IMG/VR virus record: IMGVR_UViG_3300029953_000001
Origin: a virus
DNA: 64,000 bases
Strand: one strand, 5' to 3'
Below the pieces are notes generated by a model, which did not search any database, was not told where the DNA came from, and was given only the letters and a program-made list of their open reading frames with translations. Position 1 is the stretch's first letter, and each line of letters opens with the position of its first letter. Positions 4,210 through 51,286 of this stretch are shown here, piece after piece. The position numbers were made by a program, and so were the translations under genes.

Positions 4210-5655
4210 CTAATTAATATTCAGTGAGAAGCGTTTCTTCCCGCTATCCCAAATACGATACCATCCCTTGGCTTCCGCTTCGGATTTCTCATCCATGCCT
4301 GCCTTGACCCTTAGAGCGTACTTGCTTTTACGAACTGAACCGTTGGTGTACGAGTAATCCGGCTTTAACTCCTCTTCGAATGTGAACCCCAGCTTTCCAT
4401 AGAGCCCACCCGTGTGAAACCGATTATCACTAAAGGTGACCATTCGCTTGAATCCCATAGAGCGTAGCTCAGGAAGAGCTAGATGAAGAGCCTTTTCATG
4501 AGGATTCCATGCTTTATATTCATGATTCCAACTAGCCCGATGCCACAGGATGACACCCTCTTCACGTTTCATAAAAACCCATACACCCACAAGTTGGGTA
4601 CCATGGTGGGCAGTCACCGTCAGGCCACCGGATGCGGCTCCGAGGTAATGGTACGCATCTAGAAAGGTTCGAGCTTCAAATGGAGTTTCATGATGGATAG
4701 CAAAAACCGGCTTGATGCGCTTCCCACTCCGGGGTTGAATCATCGAACGTACGAGTGCCTTAACTACATCAGGTTTCTCATTCCACTCATCCTGATAAAT
4801 CTGGAGAAGGCGGGTTGCGCCCTGTTGTAACCACTGAAACTTATCGGCGTCTTTAGACCCTTGAAGGTATCTCTCCGAGTGCCATATCAGTCCATGGTAC
4901 TCAATAGCTAACGAGGCCGAAGGAACGTAGATATCCACTGTATGTCGTCTGGAAAACTGGGGAACCAAAGAGGACAAAGGGACTTCCATCTCTACCGGAA
5001 CGTGGTATTCGTTACGAATGAAATCGGCAATATGGGTGGCTGGAGAGTTCGCCATCATACCCATTCGGTGACATCCACAGGACTTAATCAGTCCTTGTAC
5101 GAGGGAGTCGCCGTAAACCACTGACGTGTTCCCGCAATCACAAGTCACATTCCACTGGTACTTCCCCCCCTGACCCACTCCATGTACAGTCGTTGTCGTA
5201 AGAGCGCCGAACCGCTGCCCTTCTATGTCCTTGAAGTTAGCGAGTGTGGCTTGTTCTCTCATGTAACAACCACATGAAGACGTGTGTCCACTATTCAAGT
5301 GAGCAGTGGATACCAGTGCCATGCCCCCACATTCACAAGAGCACTGCCAGAATGACTGACCGTTATACGACCCCTCGTTACGTTGGTGGTCTAATGTTAT
5401 AACTAGAAGCCGTCCGAATTTCCTGCCCACCATACTGGGGATACGATTCTGGCGACTCTCTTTTACCAGACAACCACATGACTTGGATAACCCTCGCAGC
5501 ACAGAAGCCCACGATATTTCTTTTGTTCCACCGCAGGAGCACACGAACCGATACTTCGTATGAGACACCCTAAGATTAAGAGGTAGGTTCTCCTGCTGAG
5601 GGTCAAGACGAAGTCGGTTCCACTGCATACCCAGCATATCCATACTAATACCCAA
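4210..5655 (-). CDS. Putative homing-type endonuclease: three tandem Zn-ribbon repeats, a Vsr-like PD-(D/E)XK nuclease domain and a C-terminal domain
   Basis: Repeats FVCSCGG..SKSCGC, WQCSCECGG..SSCGC and WNVTCDCGN..KSCGC. Nuclease-like TVDIYVPSASLAIEYHGLIWH...RYLQG...D. Free-standing, immediately downstream of the capsid gene terminator. Paralogous architecture at 33462..34397. Confidence 0.45.
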   Translation of the reverse strand: MGISMDMLGMQWNRLRLDPQQENLPLNLRVSHTKYRFVCSCGGTKEISWASVLRGLSKSCGCLVKESRQNRIPSMVGRKFGRLLVITLDHQRNEGSYNGQSFWQCSCECGGMALVSTAHLNSGHTSSCGCYMREQATLANFKDIEGQRFGALTTTTVHGVGQGGKYQWNVTCDCGNTSVVYGDSLVQGLIKSCGCHRMGMMANSPATHIADFIRNEYHVPVEMEVPLSSLVPQFSRRHTVDIYVPSASLAIEYHGLIWHSERYLQGSKDADKFQWLQQGATRLLQIYQDEWNEKPDVVKALVRSMIQPRSGKRIKPVFAIHHETPFEARTFLDAYHYLGAASGGLTVTAHHGTQLVGVWVFMKREEGVILWHRASWNHEYKAWNPHEKALHLALPELRSMGFKRMVTFSDNRFHTGGLYGKLGFTFEEELKPDYSYTNGSVRKSKYALRVKAGMDEKSEAEAKGWYRIWDSGKKRFSLNIN

Positions 5656-5711: not shown

Positions 5712-6668
5712 TTAGTTCTCGCCTACGTTCGGGGAAGCGAAGCGACCACTTACAGTCAGACGCTGTACGCCGGACGGGTTGAAGACCAAGAAGCCGAGGT
5801 TCTCGAAGATGGAGAAACCAATCTGGCGGAGGTCAGGACGGTCTGCACTCATGACGGTTAGCGGGATACGCTCTGGGATGACACCGAGGAACTCAGCGTC
5901 GGCCAGAATGTACACGCAGCCATAACCAACCTTACGGGACTGGAGCAGAGTTGCGCCCCACAGGTAACCCATAACACCGGTCTTCAAGAGCTTGCGCTGT
6001 GTCTCACGGTCGATGTTCTGCTGTGTCCACTTGAGCAAGTCAGTGTAGTCGCGGGGGTTGAAGAAGCAGAAAGCCACCGAGAGGTCGTGACGCTGAACCT
6101 GACCGAAACCATCAGCCATGCTGTTGATGTCGATAGGAGCCGAAATCGCGATGTCCACGTTGTACACGGGGTCGGTCTGCGCCTTGCCTGCTGCGGCAGT
6201 TGCAACCGCGTCAAACAGGGTGAAAACGTAGCCGTCTTCTGCTGCACCGACTTCAGCCTTCGCCAAGTTAAGCGAACGGGCCACGAGGTCGAAGCGGCGT
6301 TCCTTAATCTGGGTGATAGGAATCATCGGGTTGGATACGATTTCGAACGTCGGAACCGTAACACGCTTCGGCTTTGTCACGCGAACGATGTCACCACCTT
6401 CTTCACCGACGACGAAGGCTTCCACGAAGCTACCACCGGGGGCCGAGCCCACAGTCATAGCAGCAGTGTCAAATTCCTTATCGTAGATGGGCAGAGCACC
6501 ATCGGGCAAAGTCTCAACCATCAGCGCCTTACGGGCGATGGACATATAGTCACGACGACGACGAAGTGACGGGCCAAGCGAGGCAGCAAGCTTCTGACGA
6601 CCACCGGCAGTCTTAAGCAACTGTCCGAGCATCGCGGTCTGCTGCTGTGTGCGAGAAAGATTAGCCAT
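5712..6668 (-). CDS. Putative major capsid protein (318 aa)
   Basis: Strong RBS AAGGAAAAGGAAT-ATG; a strong terminator follows. Gene order acidic scaffold-like protein, small head protein, this gene matches a head module. No diagnostic motif, so the call is positional. Confidence 0.4.
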   Translation of the reverse strand: MANLSRTQQQTAMLGQLLKTAGGRQKLAASLGPSLRRRRDYMSIARKALMVETLPDGALPIYDKEFDTAAMTVGSAPGGSFVEAFVVGEEGGDIVRVTKPKRVTVPTFEIVSNPMIPITQIKERRFDLVARSLNLAKAEVGAAEDGYVFTLFDAVATAAAGKAQTDPVYNVDIAISAPIDINSMADGFGQVQRHDLSVAFCFFNPRDYTDLLKWTQQNIDRETQRKLLKTGVMGYLWGATLLQSRKVGYGCVYILADAEFLGVIPERIPLTVMSADRPDLRQIGFSIFENLGFLVFNPSGVQRLTVSGRFASPNVGEN

Positions 6669-44675: not shown

Positions 44676-45103
44676 TGGACGTTACCTCTTTCAAGCAAAA
44701 TAGTCGGGGAGCATCAGACCTAATCGTTGGCAAAGCCCGAAGGCTTTAAGTGAGAAGGAAGGGCTGAAATAGCCGACCAGTATGGGCTAGGGAGTAGTGT
44801 ACCTGAGTCTCATCCAATAGAAGTGTAGAAGGAAGGGACACAATAGCCAGCCCAGTTTCTATAATACGACAGAAATGGAAAAATGTGTGAAGTATTTTTC
44901 AGCACATATCCCATGCACGGATTTCGGAGTGTTCGAAGTCTACATCGGCGAGGTTCTCTTCGCCTACCATCTCAGCCGCGAACGCACGGTAAGTCTCTTC
45001 CGTGGAGTCGGAGGGGTGGTGGAACTCGAACTGGAACTTACGAGGGTCTCCGTCTTCGGTCTCGACACGATGGCCGCAGCAACCGGAGTCGCAACCGTAG
45101 TAG

Positions 45104-45421
45104 CTATGTAGGATTAGAAGTTTCATTCTGTAACCTCACTAATTCTGCGTACCCCGCAGGGTTCCACTCTTTATACACCCGAGGGTTGACGAACATGAAC
45201 GTAGGTGCAAGGTCATACCGTTGGACTTCTGCGAAGGCGTCAGCCATACCCTCAAGGGTAATTGCACCCGGAGTGGGCTGGGGGGTTGGTACGTTCCACA
45301 AATACCCCATCACGCCACGCTGCTTCAGCAACTCAAGGTCAACAGGAACAGGTGCTGGCGTCGGGAGTACCGCCGCGACCGCTACTGCAACCATGGTGCC
45401 TAAAAAGTTTCTACGGTTCAA
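45104..45421 (-). CDS. Tat-signal protein (105 aa), paralogue family
   Basis: MNRRNFLGTMVAVAVAAVLP twin-arginine motif. MFVNPRVYKEW motif shared with 45654..46265. Confidence 0.5.
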   Translation of the reverse strand: MNRRNFLGTMVAVAVAAVLPTPAPVPVDLELLKQRGVMGYLWNVPTPQPTPGAITLEGMADAFAEVQRYDLAPTFMFVNPRVYKEWNPAGYAELVRLQNETSNPT

Positions 45422-45653
45422 TCTCCTGCCTCCATGAAGTGCGTGATGGGACCATACTTCGGCTGGGCTGCAATCTTCCAGCAGTTTATGATTCGGAATG
45501 CTCGACCTGTGCCGGTGAGAATACGACCAGTCTGAGTCTTCACTGCGAAGAAGCGTTCCTTCGATTCATCGGTGGGGGCTCCGGGAGTCCATGCCTCTGG
45601 AGGCAGGGTACCGGCCCAGTCACCAATCGCTTGCAGATGTTTTTCTTTTTCTC

Positions 45654-46265
45654 TCATGCGAAGAACTGCTCCCCAACTTTCTCGTTCACGAACAGCACGA
45701 CGTTCCAATCAGTGGGCTTGCGAGTATAGGTCGCAGTGTGATGGAAGAACCCCTTAGTAGAAAGCTCAACCCAGTCCACAGGTGCGGACGCCCTGTAACT
45801 CTTCGGCCTGTCTCCGACGTACCGGCGTTCGGTACGAACACGAATCTCATCCATGGGGAGGTCGAGGTCACCCACCACGATGGCTCCCCACATGTACCCC
45901 ATGACCGGGCGACCCTCGGTGTAGTGATAACTCGCACAGACCATATCGCCGGGACTACCGTTGAAGTGACGACCCTTACTCCATGACTTCTTAGCCCCTC
46001 TGCTGTATCGAGACTCCCCCATAAAATCCTCCCAACCAATGGTGTCTTCAAGCCAGAGAAGATTGTCGGGGTTGATGTAAAGAACCTCCGCCCGATCCCC
46101 ATGAGCTTCCATCTTGTCGAAGGCGTCCTTGATACTTTCAGGAGATAGCCCCGGCGTCAGCTTGATAGGCTGGGGTGTGGGAACGTACTTCGCCAACGCT
46201 GTGAGCGGAGAGACGAGGGCGAGAGCCACCGATGTTTGGAGAAAATTTCGACGCGATACTAACAT
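45654..46265 (-). CDS. Tat-signal protein (203 aa), paralogue family
   Basis: MLVSRRNFLQTSVALALVSPLTALA, then LYINPDNLLWLED. Confidence 0.5.
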   Translation of the reverse strand: MLVSRRNFLQTSVALALVSPLTALAKYVPTPQPIKLTPGLSPESIKDAFDKMEAHGDRAEVLYINPDNLLWLEDTIGWEDFMGESRYSRGAKKSWSKGRHFNGSPGDMVCASYHYTEGRPVMGYMWGAIVVGDLDLPMDEIRVRTERRYVGDRPKSYRASAPVDWVELSTKGFFHHTATYTRKPTDWNVVLFVNEKVGEQFFA

Positions 46266-46280
46266 GATTCCTCATTTCTA

Positions 46281-46352
46281 GTTCCGGCGCAGGGAGTCGA
46301 ACCCCAGTTCAAGGCTTCAAAGACCCGTGTCCTACCCAAAATAGTACCTTCC
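46281..46352 (-). tRNA. tRNA-like element (T-arm + acceptor 3' strand clear; 5' acceptor partner not found); possible pseudo-tRNA, anticodon-loop-like CUUUGAA
   Basis: On the minus strand CTGGGGTTCGACTCCCTG-CGCCGGA. No complementary 5' strand within 80 nt. Confidence 0.25.
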
Positions 46353-46483
46353 GTTAAGGATGTTCTGTGTCCGGTACACTGTGTAAAACCGGGTTGTAGC
46401 TTTCTTATAGTTTCTCATGAACCTATCAACCTCTCAGATGCTGAGGAGCTAACCTCTACTAAAGAGGTTGATAGTCACGAAAG

Positions 46484-46564
46484 AGCTACGAGAGGGATTC
46501 GAACCCCCGGTGTTTGTATGCCGCATTACAAGTGCGGTGCATTCGACCACTCAGCCATCGTAGC
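46484..46564 (-). tRNA. tRNA, anticodon arm CCGCA-CUUGUAA-UGCGG (UGU, Thr-like); atypical 81 nt with extra ACAAACA insert before the T-arm
   Basis: Perfect acceptor GCTACGA/TCGTAGC. T-arm GGGGG-TTCGAAT-CCCTC. No encoded CCA. Confidence 0.45.
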
Positions 46565-46570
46565 ATACCT

Positions 46571-46840
46571 TTACATTTTTACAAAAGAGAGTACCGGTAC
46601 ATCTGGGTAGCTCTCCCTGACTTCTTTATTCCAAACCTCGTGCCTTGCATGACATTCTGAACAGTAGAACGCTCCCGCATCGAAGGAGTGGTCTTGATAA
46701 TCACTCGACCAACCCCCTGTGCCGGGAGGGCACCAGAACTCAGCCGAGTTTTCACATCTCCCCTTGTAGTTCTCAATGTCCGTGGATACAAACCCCACAG
46801 ACTCCGGTACGCCCATGCATTGAATCTTCAAATCGGTCAT
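46571..46840 (-). CDS. Hypothetical Cys-containing protein (89 aa)
   Basis: Complete ORF. Confidence 0.35.
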   Translation of the reverse strand: MTDLKIQCMGVPESVGFVSTDIENYKGRCENSAEFWCPPGTGGWSSDYQDHSFDAGAFYCSECHARHEVWNKEVRESYPDVPVLSFVKM

Positions 46841-46848
46841 GTATCCTC

Positions 46849-47156
46849 TTACTTATACTTCGGGAAGAATCCAAAGTTCTTGGGGTACTCTTCTCTCGGT
46901 ATGAAAACGATTGCAACTTCTTGTCCGTTCAACGTGGACTCGGTGATGACTTGATGCTTCGGCACTTCCTTCGCCTTCTCGAACTCCTCGTCGGTTACCT
47001 TGCACACAACCTTGGCGAAGGACGTTTGCAGCCACTTGACCATATCCGGGTCGGTGGGGAAGTTCAGGTAGAGCGACAGAGGCCCGTGTGCTGCGGCCAC
47101 GATGGCGTTACCTACCGGGATGGAGCCCTTCACCAAAACGTACATCTTCAATTTCA
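46849..47156 (-). CDS. PTH2-like peptidyl-tRNA hydrolase candidate (about 102 aa; true start at the internal Met, MKLKMYVLV...)
   Basis: The listed ORF 46849..47448 runs through two tRNA genes, so the start was re-assigned to ATG at 47154-47156 (GAGG 9 nt upstream). KMYVLVKGSIPVGNAIVAAAHG and KVVCKVTDEEFEKAKE...VAIVFIP follow the PTH2 pattern. Confidence 0.4.
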
Positions 47157-47246
47157 TGCTGGCCTCGTGTATGAGTCCGATAGGGCTCATTGGACTCATA
47201 TATGAAGCACTAAAGCCGTTAGTGCTCCATATATGGGACTTTATCT

Positions 47247-47319
47247 TGGTGGGCACTTCGGGAGTTGAACCCGAATCACCGTTTCCCTTGGCAGGGTGCC
47301 ACGGTGAACCAATGTGCCC
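47247..47319 (-). tRNA. tRNA-like gene with encoded CCA, good acceptor and T-arm but no canonical anticodon arm (pseudo-tRNA?)
   Basis: GGGCACA...TCGGG-TTCAACT-CCCGA-AGTGCCC-A-CCA. No 5-bp/7-nt anticodon stem-loop in the middle region. Confidence 0.3.
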
Positions 47320-47325
47320 GAATCT

Positions 47326-47412
47326 TGGTTGGGGAGGCAGGATTCGAACCTGCAATGAGCTTACGCTCGGGGGCTTCAAAGGCCCTTGACCTACCATTGG
47401 TACGACTCCCCA
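47326..47412 (-). tRNA. tRNA, 87 nt with encoded CCA and a long variable arm (GAGC-GTAA-GCTC); U1:A72 Gln-like acceptor; anticodon read as UUG (alternative parse UGA)
   Basis: TGGGGAG ... AGGGC-CUUUGAA-GCCCC ... GCAGG-TTCGAAT-CCTGC-CTCCCCA-A-CCA. Confidence 0.5.
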
Positions 47413-47417
47413 ATAAC

Positions 47418-47651
47418 TTATGCTGTGACCAAATCCTTCGGAGGCCACTCAAACTTCCAGTTGCTCCGCTCACGAATCTTGTTATCGCGAATGTTGTAGA
47501 ACCCGGCGTACGCTGCACACGTGATAGAGCAGAACACAGGATGACTCAGGTCGTCCGGCATCTCAACCATCTGAGGCCCACGTGGGGTGTCAGGGTCTTC
47601 GTGATGACGCCGATAATCTGCACAACCGGGTGCTGGACACGCAATCAACAT
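47418..47651 (-). CDS. Small Cys/His protein (77 aa), same frame as and 3 nt downstream of the RNA ligase TGA
   Basis: CPAPGC...H...C..TC. ATG at 47649-47651. Confidence 0.35.
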   Translation of the reverse strand: MLIACPAPGCADYRRHHEDPDTPRGPQMVEMPDDLSHPVFCSITCAAYAGFYNIRDNKIRERSNWKFEWPPKDLVTA

Positions 47652-47654
47652 AGC

Positions 47655-48254
47655 TCACTCCCAGTACAGCCTATAGTTCGTTCCGTATACTTCGTTCAAC
47701 TTCTTGAAGAAGGCATCGGTCTTTATCTTGACCATGAAATCGTCACCCTTGGCGACGACGCCTTCCCACACTGGATACTTTCCGCTGCGGACATCATCAA
47801 CGAACTGCTTGTTGAGGTTGCCCTCGTAAACCACTTCAGCCGCGTATGGCAGGTCTCCGTACTGCTTGAGAAACTGCCGGGGCGACATCATCCCCTTCTT
47901 GAACAGGTACACATCGAACAAGCGAAGCTGCTTAGGCTCCCCCGGCGTATGCACACCCGCGAAACTTGAGTCCCCGAAGAACTCTGTGAAGACCGTGGTC
48001 CTCTGGCAGTTCCGGTCGTAGTCCTTCACCCGGCGAGTCAACTCATCTGCCATGGTATCCATGAAGACCGGAATCGCTTCACCGAAGACCGGGTTGCTCT
48101 TGTCGAACAACTCATGTCGGGTACCAAACTTGAACCAACCCTTCTTGGGGTTCCACTCCCAACGAAGGTTCGAGCCATCGTACTTGTAGAAAGCGATGCA
48201 CTGCTTACCTAGAGGGGCTTTGGAACTTCCTTCGATACTTGGGTACTGCTCCAT
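47655..48254 (-). CDS. RNA ligase-like nucleotidyltransferase (Rnl family)
   Basis: Motif I KYDGSN (adenylylation Lys), FTEFFG, DVYLF, motif V EGVVAKGDD, then KIKTD. 199 aa (NTase domain only). Confidence 0.55.
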   Translation of the reverse strand: MEQYPSIEGSSKAPLGKQCIAFYKYDGSNLRWEWNPKKGWFKFGTRHELFDKSNPVFGEAIPVFMDTMADELTRRVKDYDRNCQRTTVFTEFFGDSSFAGVHTPGEPKQLRLFDVYLFKKGMMSPRQFLKQYGDLPYAAEVVYEGNLNKQFVDDVRSGKYPVWEGVVAKGDDFMVKIKTDAFFKKLNEVYGTNYRLYWE

Positions 48255-48522
48255 ACATCCCTTTCAATTTCTCCAATACCACTTCCATAATCAGGGAGTG
48301 GTTTATGAAATGCCTTCAATGTGATACCGACACGAGTAATCCAAAGTTCTGCTCCAACAAGTGACCATATTGATGGAAATTACATGAACAACCATCGTAA
48401 TAACTTGCGGTGCAACTGCCCAAACTGCGATATACAACTACCTACGTCAAAAGGGGAAGAACCGAGGCAACGGTAGGCATTGGCGTCGAGTTCGTTATGC
48501 GGAGGGTAAGTCCCGCTAAAAA

Positions 48523-48598
48523 TGGAGCCGGTTGAGGGACTCGAACCCTCTGCCTTTTGCTTACCAAGCAAATACACATCCATATATGCTTAACCGGC
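48523..48598 (-). tRNA. tRNA-Thr (anticodon GGU), CCA encoded
   Basis: GCCGGTT...TTTGC-UUGGUAA-GCAAA...GAGGG-TTCGAGT-CCCTC-AACCGGC-T-CCA. Confidence 0.6.
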
Positions 48599-48604
48599 CT
48601 TTCT

Positions 48605-48808
48605 TTACTTACAACAGCGACTAATCTGCTTATCAAGTTCCTGTGCAGTCTCGTGCGCTTTTTCAAAAAACTCATCAACATCTTCGGAGTAGGTGACTCC
48701 GTGAAGCAGAGCACGTCGCCGCTTGTCCTCTGCTACGTTGTGGCGAAGGTTCTCCAGCATCTGCTGAGCGATTGCTGCTGCGGCCTCATCCAAGTTTTCC
48801 ATACTCAC
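48605..48808 (-). CDS. Small hypothetical protein (67 aa) between tRNA genes
   Basis: Complete ORF. Confidence 0.3.
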   Translation of the reverse strand: MSMENLDEAAAAIAQQMLENLRHNVAEDKRRRALLHGVTYSEDVDEFFEKAHETAQELDKQISRCCK

Positions 48809-48823
48809 CTAATACTGCGAAAC

Positions 48824-48906
48824 TGGAGCTAGGTGAGGGACTCGAACCCTCGGTGTTTGTATACCGCTTTACGAAAGCGGTGCCGTCGCCACTGAGCCAA
48901 CCTAGC
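48824..48906 (-). tRNA. tRNA with CCA; anticodon arm CCGCU-UUCGUAA-AGCGG (CGU, Thr-like); atypical ACAAACA insert like the 46484 gene
   Basis: Acceptor GCTAGGT/ACCTAGC. T-arm GAGGG-TTCGAGT-CCCTC. Confidence 0.45.
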
Positions 48907-49423
48907 CTAATGTAAATTCTTCGTCATGGGTTTCAAGATGGCAGTTGGCACAGAGGAGGTCGCACTTATCCAACTCCTTCATCAACCGAGCCCAAGCCCA
49001 CGTCATCTTCCCTGCGATGCTAAACTCCTTTTGTTCTGGGTCTCTATGGTGGAAACTTAGAACCCGCATTGACTTACAATATCCGCACGATTGGCACTTA
49101 CCCCCTTTGTATTCAACACAACGTCTCTTTACCCGAGTCCGTTGCCTATTAGCAACACAAGAGTTGCATAAAGTCAGGGTGTGACCCTGCTTCTTGGCGA
49201 ACACATACACCCTAAAACAACGGGTACAGATTAGTGAAGCACCTTCACGCTTTACACTTACAACGACAAGACTTCCATCGTCATCCCGGCGTAAAGACCG
49301 AGTGTTGTGTGCCCCGAACGGGGAGCAGACTAAGCAATACTTTCGACGTTGGAGGTTCCGTTCAACCCCGTCGATAACCACCGTGAGTGGTATGTCTGAG
49401 CTACAAAGTGTACAAGTTCTCAT
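48902..49423 (-). CDS. HNH homing endonuclease (173 aa)
   Basis: C-terminal SFHHRDPEQK....DLLCANCH, plus Cys clusters. Confidence 0.65.
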   Translation of the reverse strand: MRTCTLCSSDIPLTVVIDGVERNLQRRKYCLVCSPFGAHNTRSLRRDDDGSLVVVSVKREGASLICTRCFRVYVFAKKQGHTLTLCNSCVANRQRTRVKRRCVEYKGGKCQSCGYCKSMRVLSFHHRDPEQKEFSIAGKMTWAWARLMKELDKCDLLCANCHLETHDEEFTLG

Positions 49424-49556
49424 GTATCAGAACTCTATAGCTCAATTTTTATACTTACTTTTACTCTAACCCACTAAGCTGGTTGGCGAGGGGAATTTTG
49501 AAATCCCAACCTCATTCTTATCAGGAATGCGCTCTTCCTTTGAGCTACTCGCCATT

Positions 49557-49633
49557 TGGTGTACCCGGAGGGACTCGAACCCCCGTAATGCTCAGTAATC
49601 GGCTGAGTGCCATAGCCACTAGGCGACGGGTAC
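49557..49633 (-). tRNA. tRNA with CCA; anticodon arm CTCAG-CCGAUUA-CTGAG (GAU, Ile-like; unusual C33)
   Basis: Acceptor GTACCCG/CGGGTAC. T-arm GGGGG-TTCGAGT-CCCTC. Confidence 0.5.
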
Positions 49634-49638
49634 AAACT

Positions 49639-49905
49639 TTACATCTTCTCTAACAAACTCTTTGCTGCTGCATCGTACTGCCATGGGTCCCAGTACCCGT
49701 TGAACCCGGCCCCGACCAACATTCCGAGGCTGTCAACTTTCTGCTCTTTCCAATCTCTGTCCTTCGGGACGAAGCCACAATCCTTGAGGATGTGAATCGC
49801 CGCCGTCGTGCGACCGAGAGGCCCGAACTTCTGCCCCGCTTCCTCTACCCCTCGCCAGTGGTGCCTAGCGAACCGGTGGAGCGCCGAACTTCTTGAACAG
49901 GTCAT
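49639..49905 (-). CDS. Hypothetical protein (88 aa)
   Basis: Complete ORF. Confidence 0.3.
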   Translation of the reverse strand: MTCSRSSALHRFARHHWRGVEEAGQKFGPLGRTTAAIHILKDCGFVPKDRDWKEQKVDSLGMLVGAGFNGYWDPWQYDAAAKSLLEKM

Positions 49906-49986
49906 CCATCCACCCGTTCACTGCCTCGCATCTGTTGCCCAAGAGGCGGTCACAATCCCTGCAATGCTCTTCCCATGCTGCCATGC

Positions 49987-50265
49987 TTATCTCCCGTAAC
50001 GAGCTTGTATCCCATCTATTACTCTGAGACAGCGGACTCTACGGCGGAGCCAGTTGCGTGCTGCGAATTTCTTTCCAGTGTTCTTGGGCAGGTTCAAGAG
50101 AAGAGAATACTCGGAGGGGTCATAGCGGTGATAGCTGACACCGTACCCTCTCCCGCGAAACTCTAAAATTGCCCGGTTGCACCGTTCTGCTAACGTCATC
50201 TTTGCTGTGACTTTCATACCCTCTCCAAAACACCAAAGCCGCCCTGTTGGGCGGCTCGTATACAT
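49987..50265 (-). CDS. Hypothetical basic protein (92 aa)
   Basis: Complete ORF. Confidence 0.3.
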   Translation of the reverse strand: MYTSRPTGRLWCFGEGMKVTAKMTLAERCNRAILEFRGRGYGVSYHRYDPSEYSLLLNLPKNTGKKFAARNWLRRRVRCLRVIDGIQARYGR

Positions 50266-50644
50266 CGAAGAATTTTTGACTGGTTAGTCTTCAATCCCTC
50301 CGCACACGAAGCCGCAGACGCTGGTTTGCGTTGTGGTAGTTGTAATTCGTGTTTGAGCGGAAAGACGCATTTTCAGAATCCGGTATTCCTATGGTATTTT
50401 GGTGCCGGAGGACAGGTTGCCCTATCACTCCGGCTTGGAGCCCTATCCAAGTTTGACCTCAGGTAGGGCATGGCCCGGAAGGTAAATTTTACTTTACCTC
50501 CCAGATGGTGGCTGAACTAAGGTCTCCCTCAGTCCAACCGTCTACATACATAATACACACAAAGTCAGAAAAGTGAACACTTATTTTTGAATTATTCGGA
50601 AATATTATTCTGGCAGTGCTCCCGGATGATTTTGATGGCATCTT

Positions 50645-51286
50645 TCACCCGTTGTTTCTCGGCCTCCGTGGTGCAGGTCGGCAGGACTTGCTGACCGGTC
50701 TTACGGATACCCGCCATGACGACTGCAAGGTGGTGCTCAGCGTAAGGATGCTGTCACGCACCGTGCTCATGACGTGGGTATCGTTGGCCGCATCCGTTGC
50801 ACGGCTGGAATCAGGGTAGATGAGTCCGGTACCAGTGCGGTCAGTGCGATGACCGACAAGCTTCACGCGACTCTTGTGGTAGTCGCTGCTAACCCACACA
50901 GTACCACGTTCCTTCAAACCGGGCAGAGTCCATACATGGGCACCCCACAGGAATCCCAAAAATTCCGAAGATTCCTCGCTGGCAGGAGCATAGTCCCTAT
51001 AAGTCGCTGCCATCACGTTATTATATGCCGGGGCATCGTCAGGGTGCAGCCACATGTTGGCGACGAGGAGGTTGTCCTTGTGGATTTCTCCGAAGGCGTT
51101 GGCAAGCATAGCAATAGAGAACACCTTAGGCTCCATAGCATCGAGGGGGAAGACATAGCTGTGGTAGCCCCTATCGGAGGCAAGGAGTTTAGGAGCGACA
51201 GCGAGAGTTACCCCTGCGGCACCGGCTGTGAGAAGGAACTTACGACGGTTCATAGATACCTCAATCCTTGATGCTGTATTGTACAC
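50645..51286 (-). CDS. Tat-signal protein (213 aa), third paralogue
   Basis: MNRRKFLLTAGAAGVTLAVAP, then MWLHPDDAPAYN. The C-terminal tail looks low-complexity, so a frameshift or alternative end is possible. Confidence 0.45.
   Translation of the reverse strand: MYNTASRIEVSMNRRKFLLTAGAAGVTLAVAPKLLASDRGYHSYVFPLDAMEPKVFSIAMLANAFGEIHKDNLLVANMWLHPDDAPAYNNVMAATYRDYAPASEESSEFLGFLWGAHVWTLPGLKERGTVWVSSDYHKSRVKLVGHRTDRTGTGLIYPDSSRATDAANDTHVMSTVRDSILTLSTTLQSSWRVSVRPVSKSCRPAPRRPRNNG

Follow-up and report, generated by a model that had tools for sequence, protein, structure and literature searches.

Diverged capsid-protein fragments behind Tat-like N-termini in a phage related to the Acidobacteriota jumbo phage Tunturi_5

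Capsid proteins are viewed as building blocks confined to the cytoplasm. To our knowledge, exapted HK97 folds (encapsulins, vertex proteins and the size-redirecting proteins of satellites) retain the complete fold and remain cytoplasmic. Among the classical substrates of the Tat export pathway, redox enzymes with cofactors and enzymes of the host envelope predominate. In a 64,000-nucleotide stretch of DNA (the window) from a giant soil phage, we analysed three small genes, A, B and C, whose products carry a Tat-like N-terminus followed by a passenger similar to part of the phage's own major capsid protein (MCP). A literature search did not find Tat signals joined to capsid-protein fragments described.

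The window encodes a tail sheath, a tail terminator, an HK97-fold capsid protein and a head protease, in agreement with the phage origin given in a preliminary description of this DNA. The closest cultured relative is Tunturi_5, a 309-kb Acidobacteriota jumbo phage of Tunturiibacter; with an MCP 73% identical to that of Tunturi_5, the phage analysed here probably infects an Acidobacteriota as well. Blastn of the region gave tRNA matches only, and a search of IMG/VR found no homologue. Each of the three families comprises just 2–4 homologue clusters, all from peat or soil metagenomes, and an HMM of the B family, run against 1.84 billion representative proteins, found only one fragment (P0006) and three repeat-protein false positives. 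Judged by these searches, homologues of A, B and C are confined to this clade.

Genes A, B and C and their Tat-like N-termini

The genes and their neighbours are listed in Table 1. The preliminary description had reported three open reading frames that begin with a twin-arginine signal. Its coordinates for A and B stand, as do the RR motifs and the hydrophobic stretches, but the start of C had been placed too far upstream, at a GTG (51286). The true start of C is almost certainly the ATG at 51253, as this codon is preceded by a ribosome-binding site (AAGGA..GAGG) and the recorded product, P0004, is the 202-aa form (100% identical to the 202-aa C). The related contigs that we inspected carry the 202-aa form, and the C homologue P0005 begins MNRRQFLL.

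Table 1. Coordinates of the features discussed (positions in the window)
Feature	Position	Strand	Remarks
MCP, HK97 fold	5712..6668	-	318 aa
75-aa Cys-rich gene	44899..45126	-	YYGCDSGCCGH; shares 23 nt with the end of A
Gene A	45104..45421	-	105 aa, TTG start, TAG stop
Gene A, segment like MCP 168-210	45128..45334	-	after the LLKxGVMGYLW motif
Gene A, Tat-like signal	45350..45421	-	residues 1 to ~24
79-aa gene between B and A	45418..45657	-	no signal, no known domain
Gene B	45654..46265	-	203 aa, ATG start, GAGGA upstream
Gene B, Tat-like signal	46191..46265	-	residues 1-25; ends ALA-KY
Gene C	50645..51253	-	202 aa, ATG start
Gene C, Tat-like signal	51179..51253	-	residues 1 to ~25

The Tat motifs are NRRNFLG in A, SRRNFLQ in B and NRRKFLL in C, and SRRGFI, SRRSFL, NRRQFL, SRRSFF and NRRNFL in homologues, giving the consensus (S/N)RRxF(L/I/F). 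RR and F are invariant in 8 of 8 family members and in gp172 of Tunturi_5. The 16 residues past the motif contain 0–1 charges and have a mean Kyte-Doolittle hydropathy of 1.32–1.66. With the TIGR01409 (TAT_signal_seq) model, A (17.3) and C (18.1) scored above the cut-off of 16.7 and B (12.7) below it; with Pfam TAT_signal (PF10518), A, B and C scored 19.9, 15.8 and 16.7, all under the gathering score of 22.7. A putative signal peptidase I site, ALA-KY, can be read from the sequence of B, and A offers several options for cleavage (AVA/VAA). In C (AVA-PK) and in gp172 (ALA-PK) a proline occupies position +1 after AxA, which disfavours cleavage; both have a basic residue in the c-region.

The Tat-like N-termini are not due to chance. 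When all six frames were searched for an RR-x-F-hydrophobic motif at the N-terminus and a hydrophobic 16-mer after it, only A, B and C were found in the window and only gp172 in the 309 kb of Tunturi_5. The motif was present on no other ORF in 858 kb, made up of the window, Tunturi_5 and LR745208, a more distant 485-kb relative; a full scan of the last genome revealed neither a Tat-like N-terminus nor an additional capsid fragment. A motif scan of the window and Tunturi_5 detected no phage-encoded TatA, and therefore the host Tat system would be needed.

Genes A, B and C are under purifying selection, the signal region included. Overall dN/dS was 0.10–0.34 for pairs with dS of 0.6–2.4 (0.21–0.34 for A and 0.26 for C), and 0.07–0.17 over the first 25 codons where it was measurable. 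Every homologue, down to 40–63% identity, has kept its reading frame, start site and RR motif. The concern that the N-termini might be artefactual extensions is thus answered by this low dN/dS and by the retention of RR and F in every homologue. In addition, identical products are encoded on many independent contigs, the longest of 431,749 bp.

Gene B opens a string of four genes (B, 79 aa, A, 75 aa). The 79-aa gene is translationally coupled both ways, through an ATGA overlap with the stop of B and a TTGA overlap in which its TGA is shared with the TTG start of A (GGAGG/AGGAG sits upstream of this start); it is also called at 79 aa on related contigs. Small Cys-rich proteins adjoin both A and C. 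BLAST comparison among the genes flanking A, B, C and gp172 revealed no relationship, and a scan of the region for promoters and terminators returned nothing exceeding the shuffled expectation. We considered read-through of the TAG of gene A because the phage carries a suppressor tRNA(CUA), and dismissed it because the extension would be Arg/Leu-rich junk, because the well-formed overlapping 75-aa gene begins there and because TAG terminates 8 of 54 long ORFs.

Similarity of the passengers to the major capsid protein

The 318-aa MCP scored 122 bits against NCBIfam NF042927 ('HK97-fold major capsid protein'; cut-off 80) and matched the major head protein family phrog_2522 with E 4.6e-42. It is 72.6% identical to the major head protein of Tunturi_5 (gp334) and 36% identical to gp27 of Bacillus phage G. 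The passengers of A, B and C apparently have this protein as their donor or parent. Profiles of the three families, which are built on shallow alignments of 2–5 sequences, all matched the MCP ORF among 830 window segments (E 3.9e-7, 0.074 and 0.028 for A, B and C, respectively). In the reverse search of the 830 segments, the MCP-family profile put A (7e-6), C (0.005) and B (0.11) right behind the MCP itself, with the next match at 0.56. BLASTP against the MCP gave alignments lying entirely outside the signal for A (4e-10), C (8e-6, 98 aa) and B (0.006), with a second alignment for A at E 0.002. Taken alone, the sequence link between B and the MCP is weak (E 0.006–0.11).

Comparison of the alignments by hhalign gave a probability of 94.9 and E 4.6e-8 for the A family against the MCP family over 36 columns (MCP 176-211), E 5.1e-5 for B (MCP 176-268) and E 2e-4 for C (MCP 178-258). 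The last two matches are collinear with the MCP, and that of A falls inside the span that they align. The passenger of B, collinear with MCP 176-268, has an insertion of ~50 aa (B 68-118) and probably extends as far as the MCP C-terminus; that of C (C 34-125) is collinear with MCP 168-257. In A, the two MCP-like pieces are permuted relative to the MCP: the signal is followed by LLKxGVMGYLW, which resembles MCP 226-238, and the segment like MCP 168-210 comes after it. A and B have in common a VPTPQP..TPG linker directly before the domain; in B it follows the signal, and in A the extra MCP-like motif precedes it. Given just ~80 residues past the signal, the product of gene A may not fold independently on its own. 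Conservation between C and P0005 continues up to residue 170 (50744..51124), and the last 32 aa of C (50645..50743) are an unrelated Arg/Pro/Ser-rich tail that arose by sequence replacement. The loss of the original C-terminus could be a sign of decay.

The passengers share the core [ILM]xxAFxx[IVM]x(8-10)[FYW][IVL][NH]P, then [ML]G[YF][LM]W(G/N). An earlier version of this core, (F/Y)(I/V)NP.....W, fits A; B has only four residues between NP and W, and C has WLHP and no W. The aligned part corresponds to the A-domain of capsid proteins, with homology running through helix, strand, helix and then beta-sheet. In A, B and C, which have 80–178 aa after the signal, nothing aligns to MCP 1-159 (N-arm, E-loop and spine helix), and NF042927 matches the 318-aa MCP but not A, B or C, nor any of their homologues. 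An AlphaFold model of B, moderately confident at pLDDT 62, superposes on capsid A-domains, a match that is partly circular because the input alignment included the C-terminal half of the MCP; the model built from 3 sequences, without the MCP row, had a pLDDT of 31. On the strength of these comparisons, each of the three passengers is a diverged copy of the C-terminal (A-domain) half of the MCP encoded by this phage, and that of B also includes C-terminal P-domain strands.

The three proteins had been proposed to be related to one another. They are, but this becomes convincing only via the MCP as their common relative, because direct pairwise similarity is weak: A-B (E 1e-7) and A-C (E 1e-6) are both partly signal-driven, B-C has an E of 0.06, and hhalign of the B and C families was insignificant (probability 1.6%).

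The same combination was seen in Tunturi_5. As its Tat-like N-terminus is followed by pieces like MCP 260-289 and MCP 87-115 (E 1.2e-12), gp172 also has the capsid-protein order permuted, and an MCP-derived passenger follows each of the four Tat-like N-termini of the window and Tunturi_5. The A-family profile had the MCP as its sole match in the Tunturi_5 genome (1.3e-9). A tblastn search of 2.3 Gb of phage DNA with A matched the Tunturi_5 MCP only, and phage records contained no tblastn match to B or C.

The preliminary description missed the capsid-derived nature of the passengers. Its suggestion of cofactor binding or action on the cell wall found no backing: searches of A, B and C against Pfam, PHROGs and NCBIfam gave only sub- or near-threshold Tat-signal matches and noise (LNS2, phrog_29594), and no domain pointing to either activity.

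Proposed export, alternatives and possible roles

The likeliest reading, and in our view a reasonably probable one, is that A, B and C are capsid-derived periplasmic proteins with predicted export by Tat. Their origin would lie in partial duplication of the capsid gene, fusion of the copy to a Tat signal and further duplication. The capsid-derived domain would fold in the cytoplasm, the host TatBC receptor would recognise the RRxF motif, and the protein would cross the inner membrane of the Gram-negative host, which is probably an Acidobacteriota. Signal peptidase would probably free B at ALA-KY, and C and gp172, with Pro after AxA, may remain anchored. We propose that these passengers pair exclusively with Tat, and would be poor Sec substrates, because capsid domains fold fast.

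It is also possible, though unlikely, that the proteins are not exported at all, and that the hydrophobic N-terminus serves as a membrane anchor or is just a sticky segment, while the domain binds capsid protein on the cytoplasmic side. There it might nucleate heads at the membrane or modulate their assembly, poison capsid formation in competing related phages or act as a decoy for capsid-sensing host defences. However, the positions conserved across four divergent families are exactly those of the Tat consensus (RR, F two residues on, and a moderately hydrophobic stretch rich in Ala, Gly and Val), and B has what reads as a classic ALA-K cleavage site. Moreover, according to the positive-inside rule, RR at the N-terminus with a hydrophobic helix after it would place the C-terminal domain outside.

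Less likely still is that Tat export occurs with the capsid domain as mere cargo, serving as carrier for a hitchhiker or saturating or jamming the Tat translocon for host takeover. Carriage of signal-less partners across the membrane by the 'hitchhiker' route is an established property of Tat, and the 79-aa and 75-aa proteins are candidates for such partners: small and signal-less, they belong to the translationally coupled string described above, and small Cys-rich proteins lie next to C as well as A. However, the genes next to A, B, C and gp172 have no detectable relationship to one another, and this explanation does not account for a passenger that is always capsid-derived, nor for the different capsid subdomains used in Tunturi_5 and in this phage.

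Decaying capsid-gene fragments, scattered by recombination or a homing endonuclease and open by accident, might be suspected from the HNH endonuclease gene (4210..5655) directly adjoining the capsid gene, the permuted pieces in A and gp172, the lost 3′ end of C and the shortness of A. We consider this very improbable in view of the dN/dS values and the frames, starts and RR motifs kept intact in all homologues, and the chance acquisition of the same specialised N-terminal motif by 3–4 fragments, and by no other ORF in 858 kb, is not credible. Equally improbable is a spurious capsid similarity that would make A, B and C an unrelated orphan family of exported proteins: the individual E-values of B and C are modest, the alignments shallow and the AlphaFold input held a capsid row, but three separate profiles converge on one ORF with B and C collinear and A inside their span, the reverse search puts exactly A, C and B on top, and the result was replicated in the independent Tunturi_5 genome and the 2.3-Gb database.

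If A, B and C are exported capsid-derived proteins, their role is a matter of speculation. One tentative idea is that the passenger keeps its affinity for the capsid lattice and acts in superinfection exclusion or in sensing for lysis timing, as T4 RI does. Its partner would be a component that contacts the MCP within the virion and enters the periplasm only upon injection by a related phage; ejection proteins, internal head proteins or DNA are candidates. More doubtful is the broader proposition that this clade of Acidobacteriota jumbo phages repeatedly excised subdomains of its own capsid protein (the A-domain in this phage and the P-domain sheet in Tunturi_5 gp172) and exports them through Tat as kin-specific superinfection-exclusion factors or lysis-timing sensors, with capsid-lattice binding surfaces that would recognise components of incoming related virions.

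Selection has kept HK97 subdomains behind a putative export signal; there are several copies, and at least two related lineages of phages have them. The availability of Tunturi_5 on Tunturiibacter in culture makes this reading testable. Export, if true, would represent a route by which the structural genes of phages give rise to new envelope-active proteins, would give a reason for the use of Tat over Sec (fast-folding passengers) and would provide a first function-linked handle on the orphan genes of soil jumbo phages. Kin recognition, if true, would define a new class of exported, capsid-derived self-recognition proteins. As a practical warning, the orphan ORFs of a large phage may escape recognition unless they are searched against the structural proteins that the phage itself encodes.

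Relation to known systems

The passengers share [LM]AdAF..[IV]..hdL....f.NP and vMGYlWGA with HK97-fold MCPs (NF042927 capsid_Caudo_2; Tunturi_5 gp334 and phage G gp27). Unlike these, A, B and C are 105–203 aa long, bear a signal, have no counterpart of MCP 1 to ~160 (N-arm, E-loop and spine helix) and are unable to form a shell alone. The vertex protein gp24 of T4, the size-redirecting protein Ccm of SaPIbov5 and encapsulins, which were among the structural matches, likewise represent a duplicated or exapted HK97 fold with a role beyond that of the main shell subunit; in contrast to A, B and C, which combine subdomains with an export signal, they are complete HK97 folds that act in the cytoplasm, inside the shell.

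The N-termini resemble Tat signals (TIGR01409/PF10518) in the Z-R-R-x-F-L motif, the moderately hydrophobic Ala/Gly/Val-rich stretch, the AxA of B and the basic c-region of C and gp172; unlike classical Tat substrates, the passengers are virus-derived and have no cofactor motif. In being small, envelope-targeted (as predicted here), fast-diverging and lineage-restricted, with weakly hydrophobic N-termini, A, B and C are similar to T4 Imm and Sp, the T4 antiholin RI (with its SAR domain), P22 SieA and HK97 gp15. This is a functional analogy only, with no sequence or structural relationship, and we know of none of these proteins being capsid-derived or Tat-dependent.

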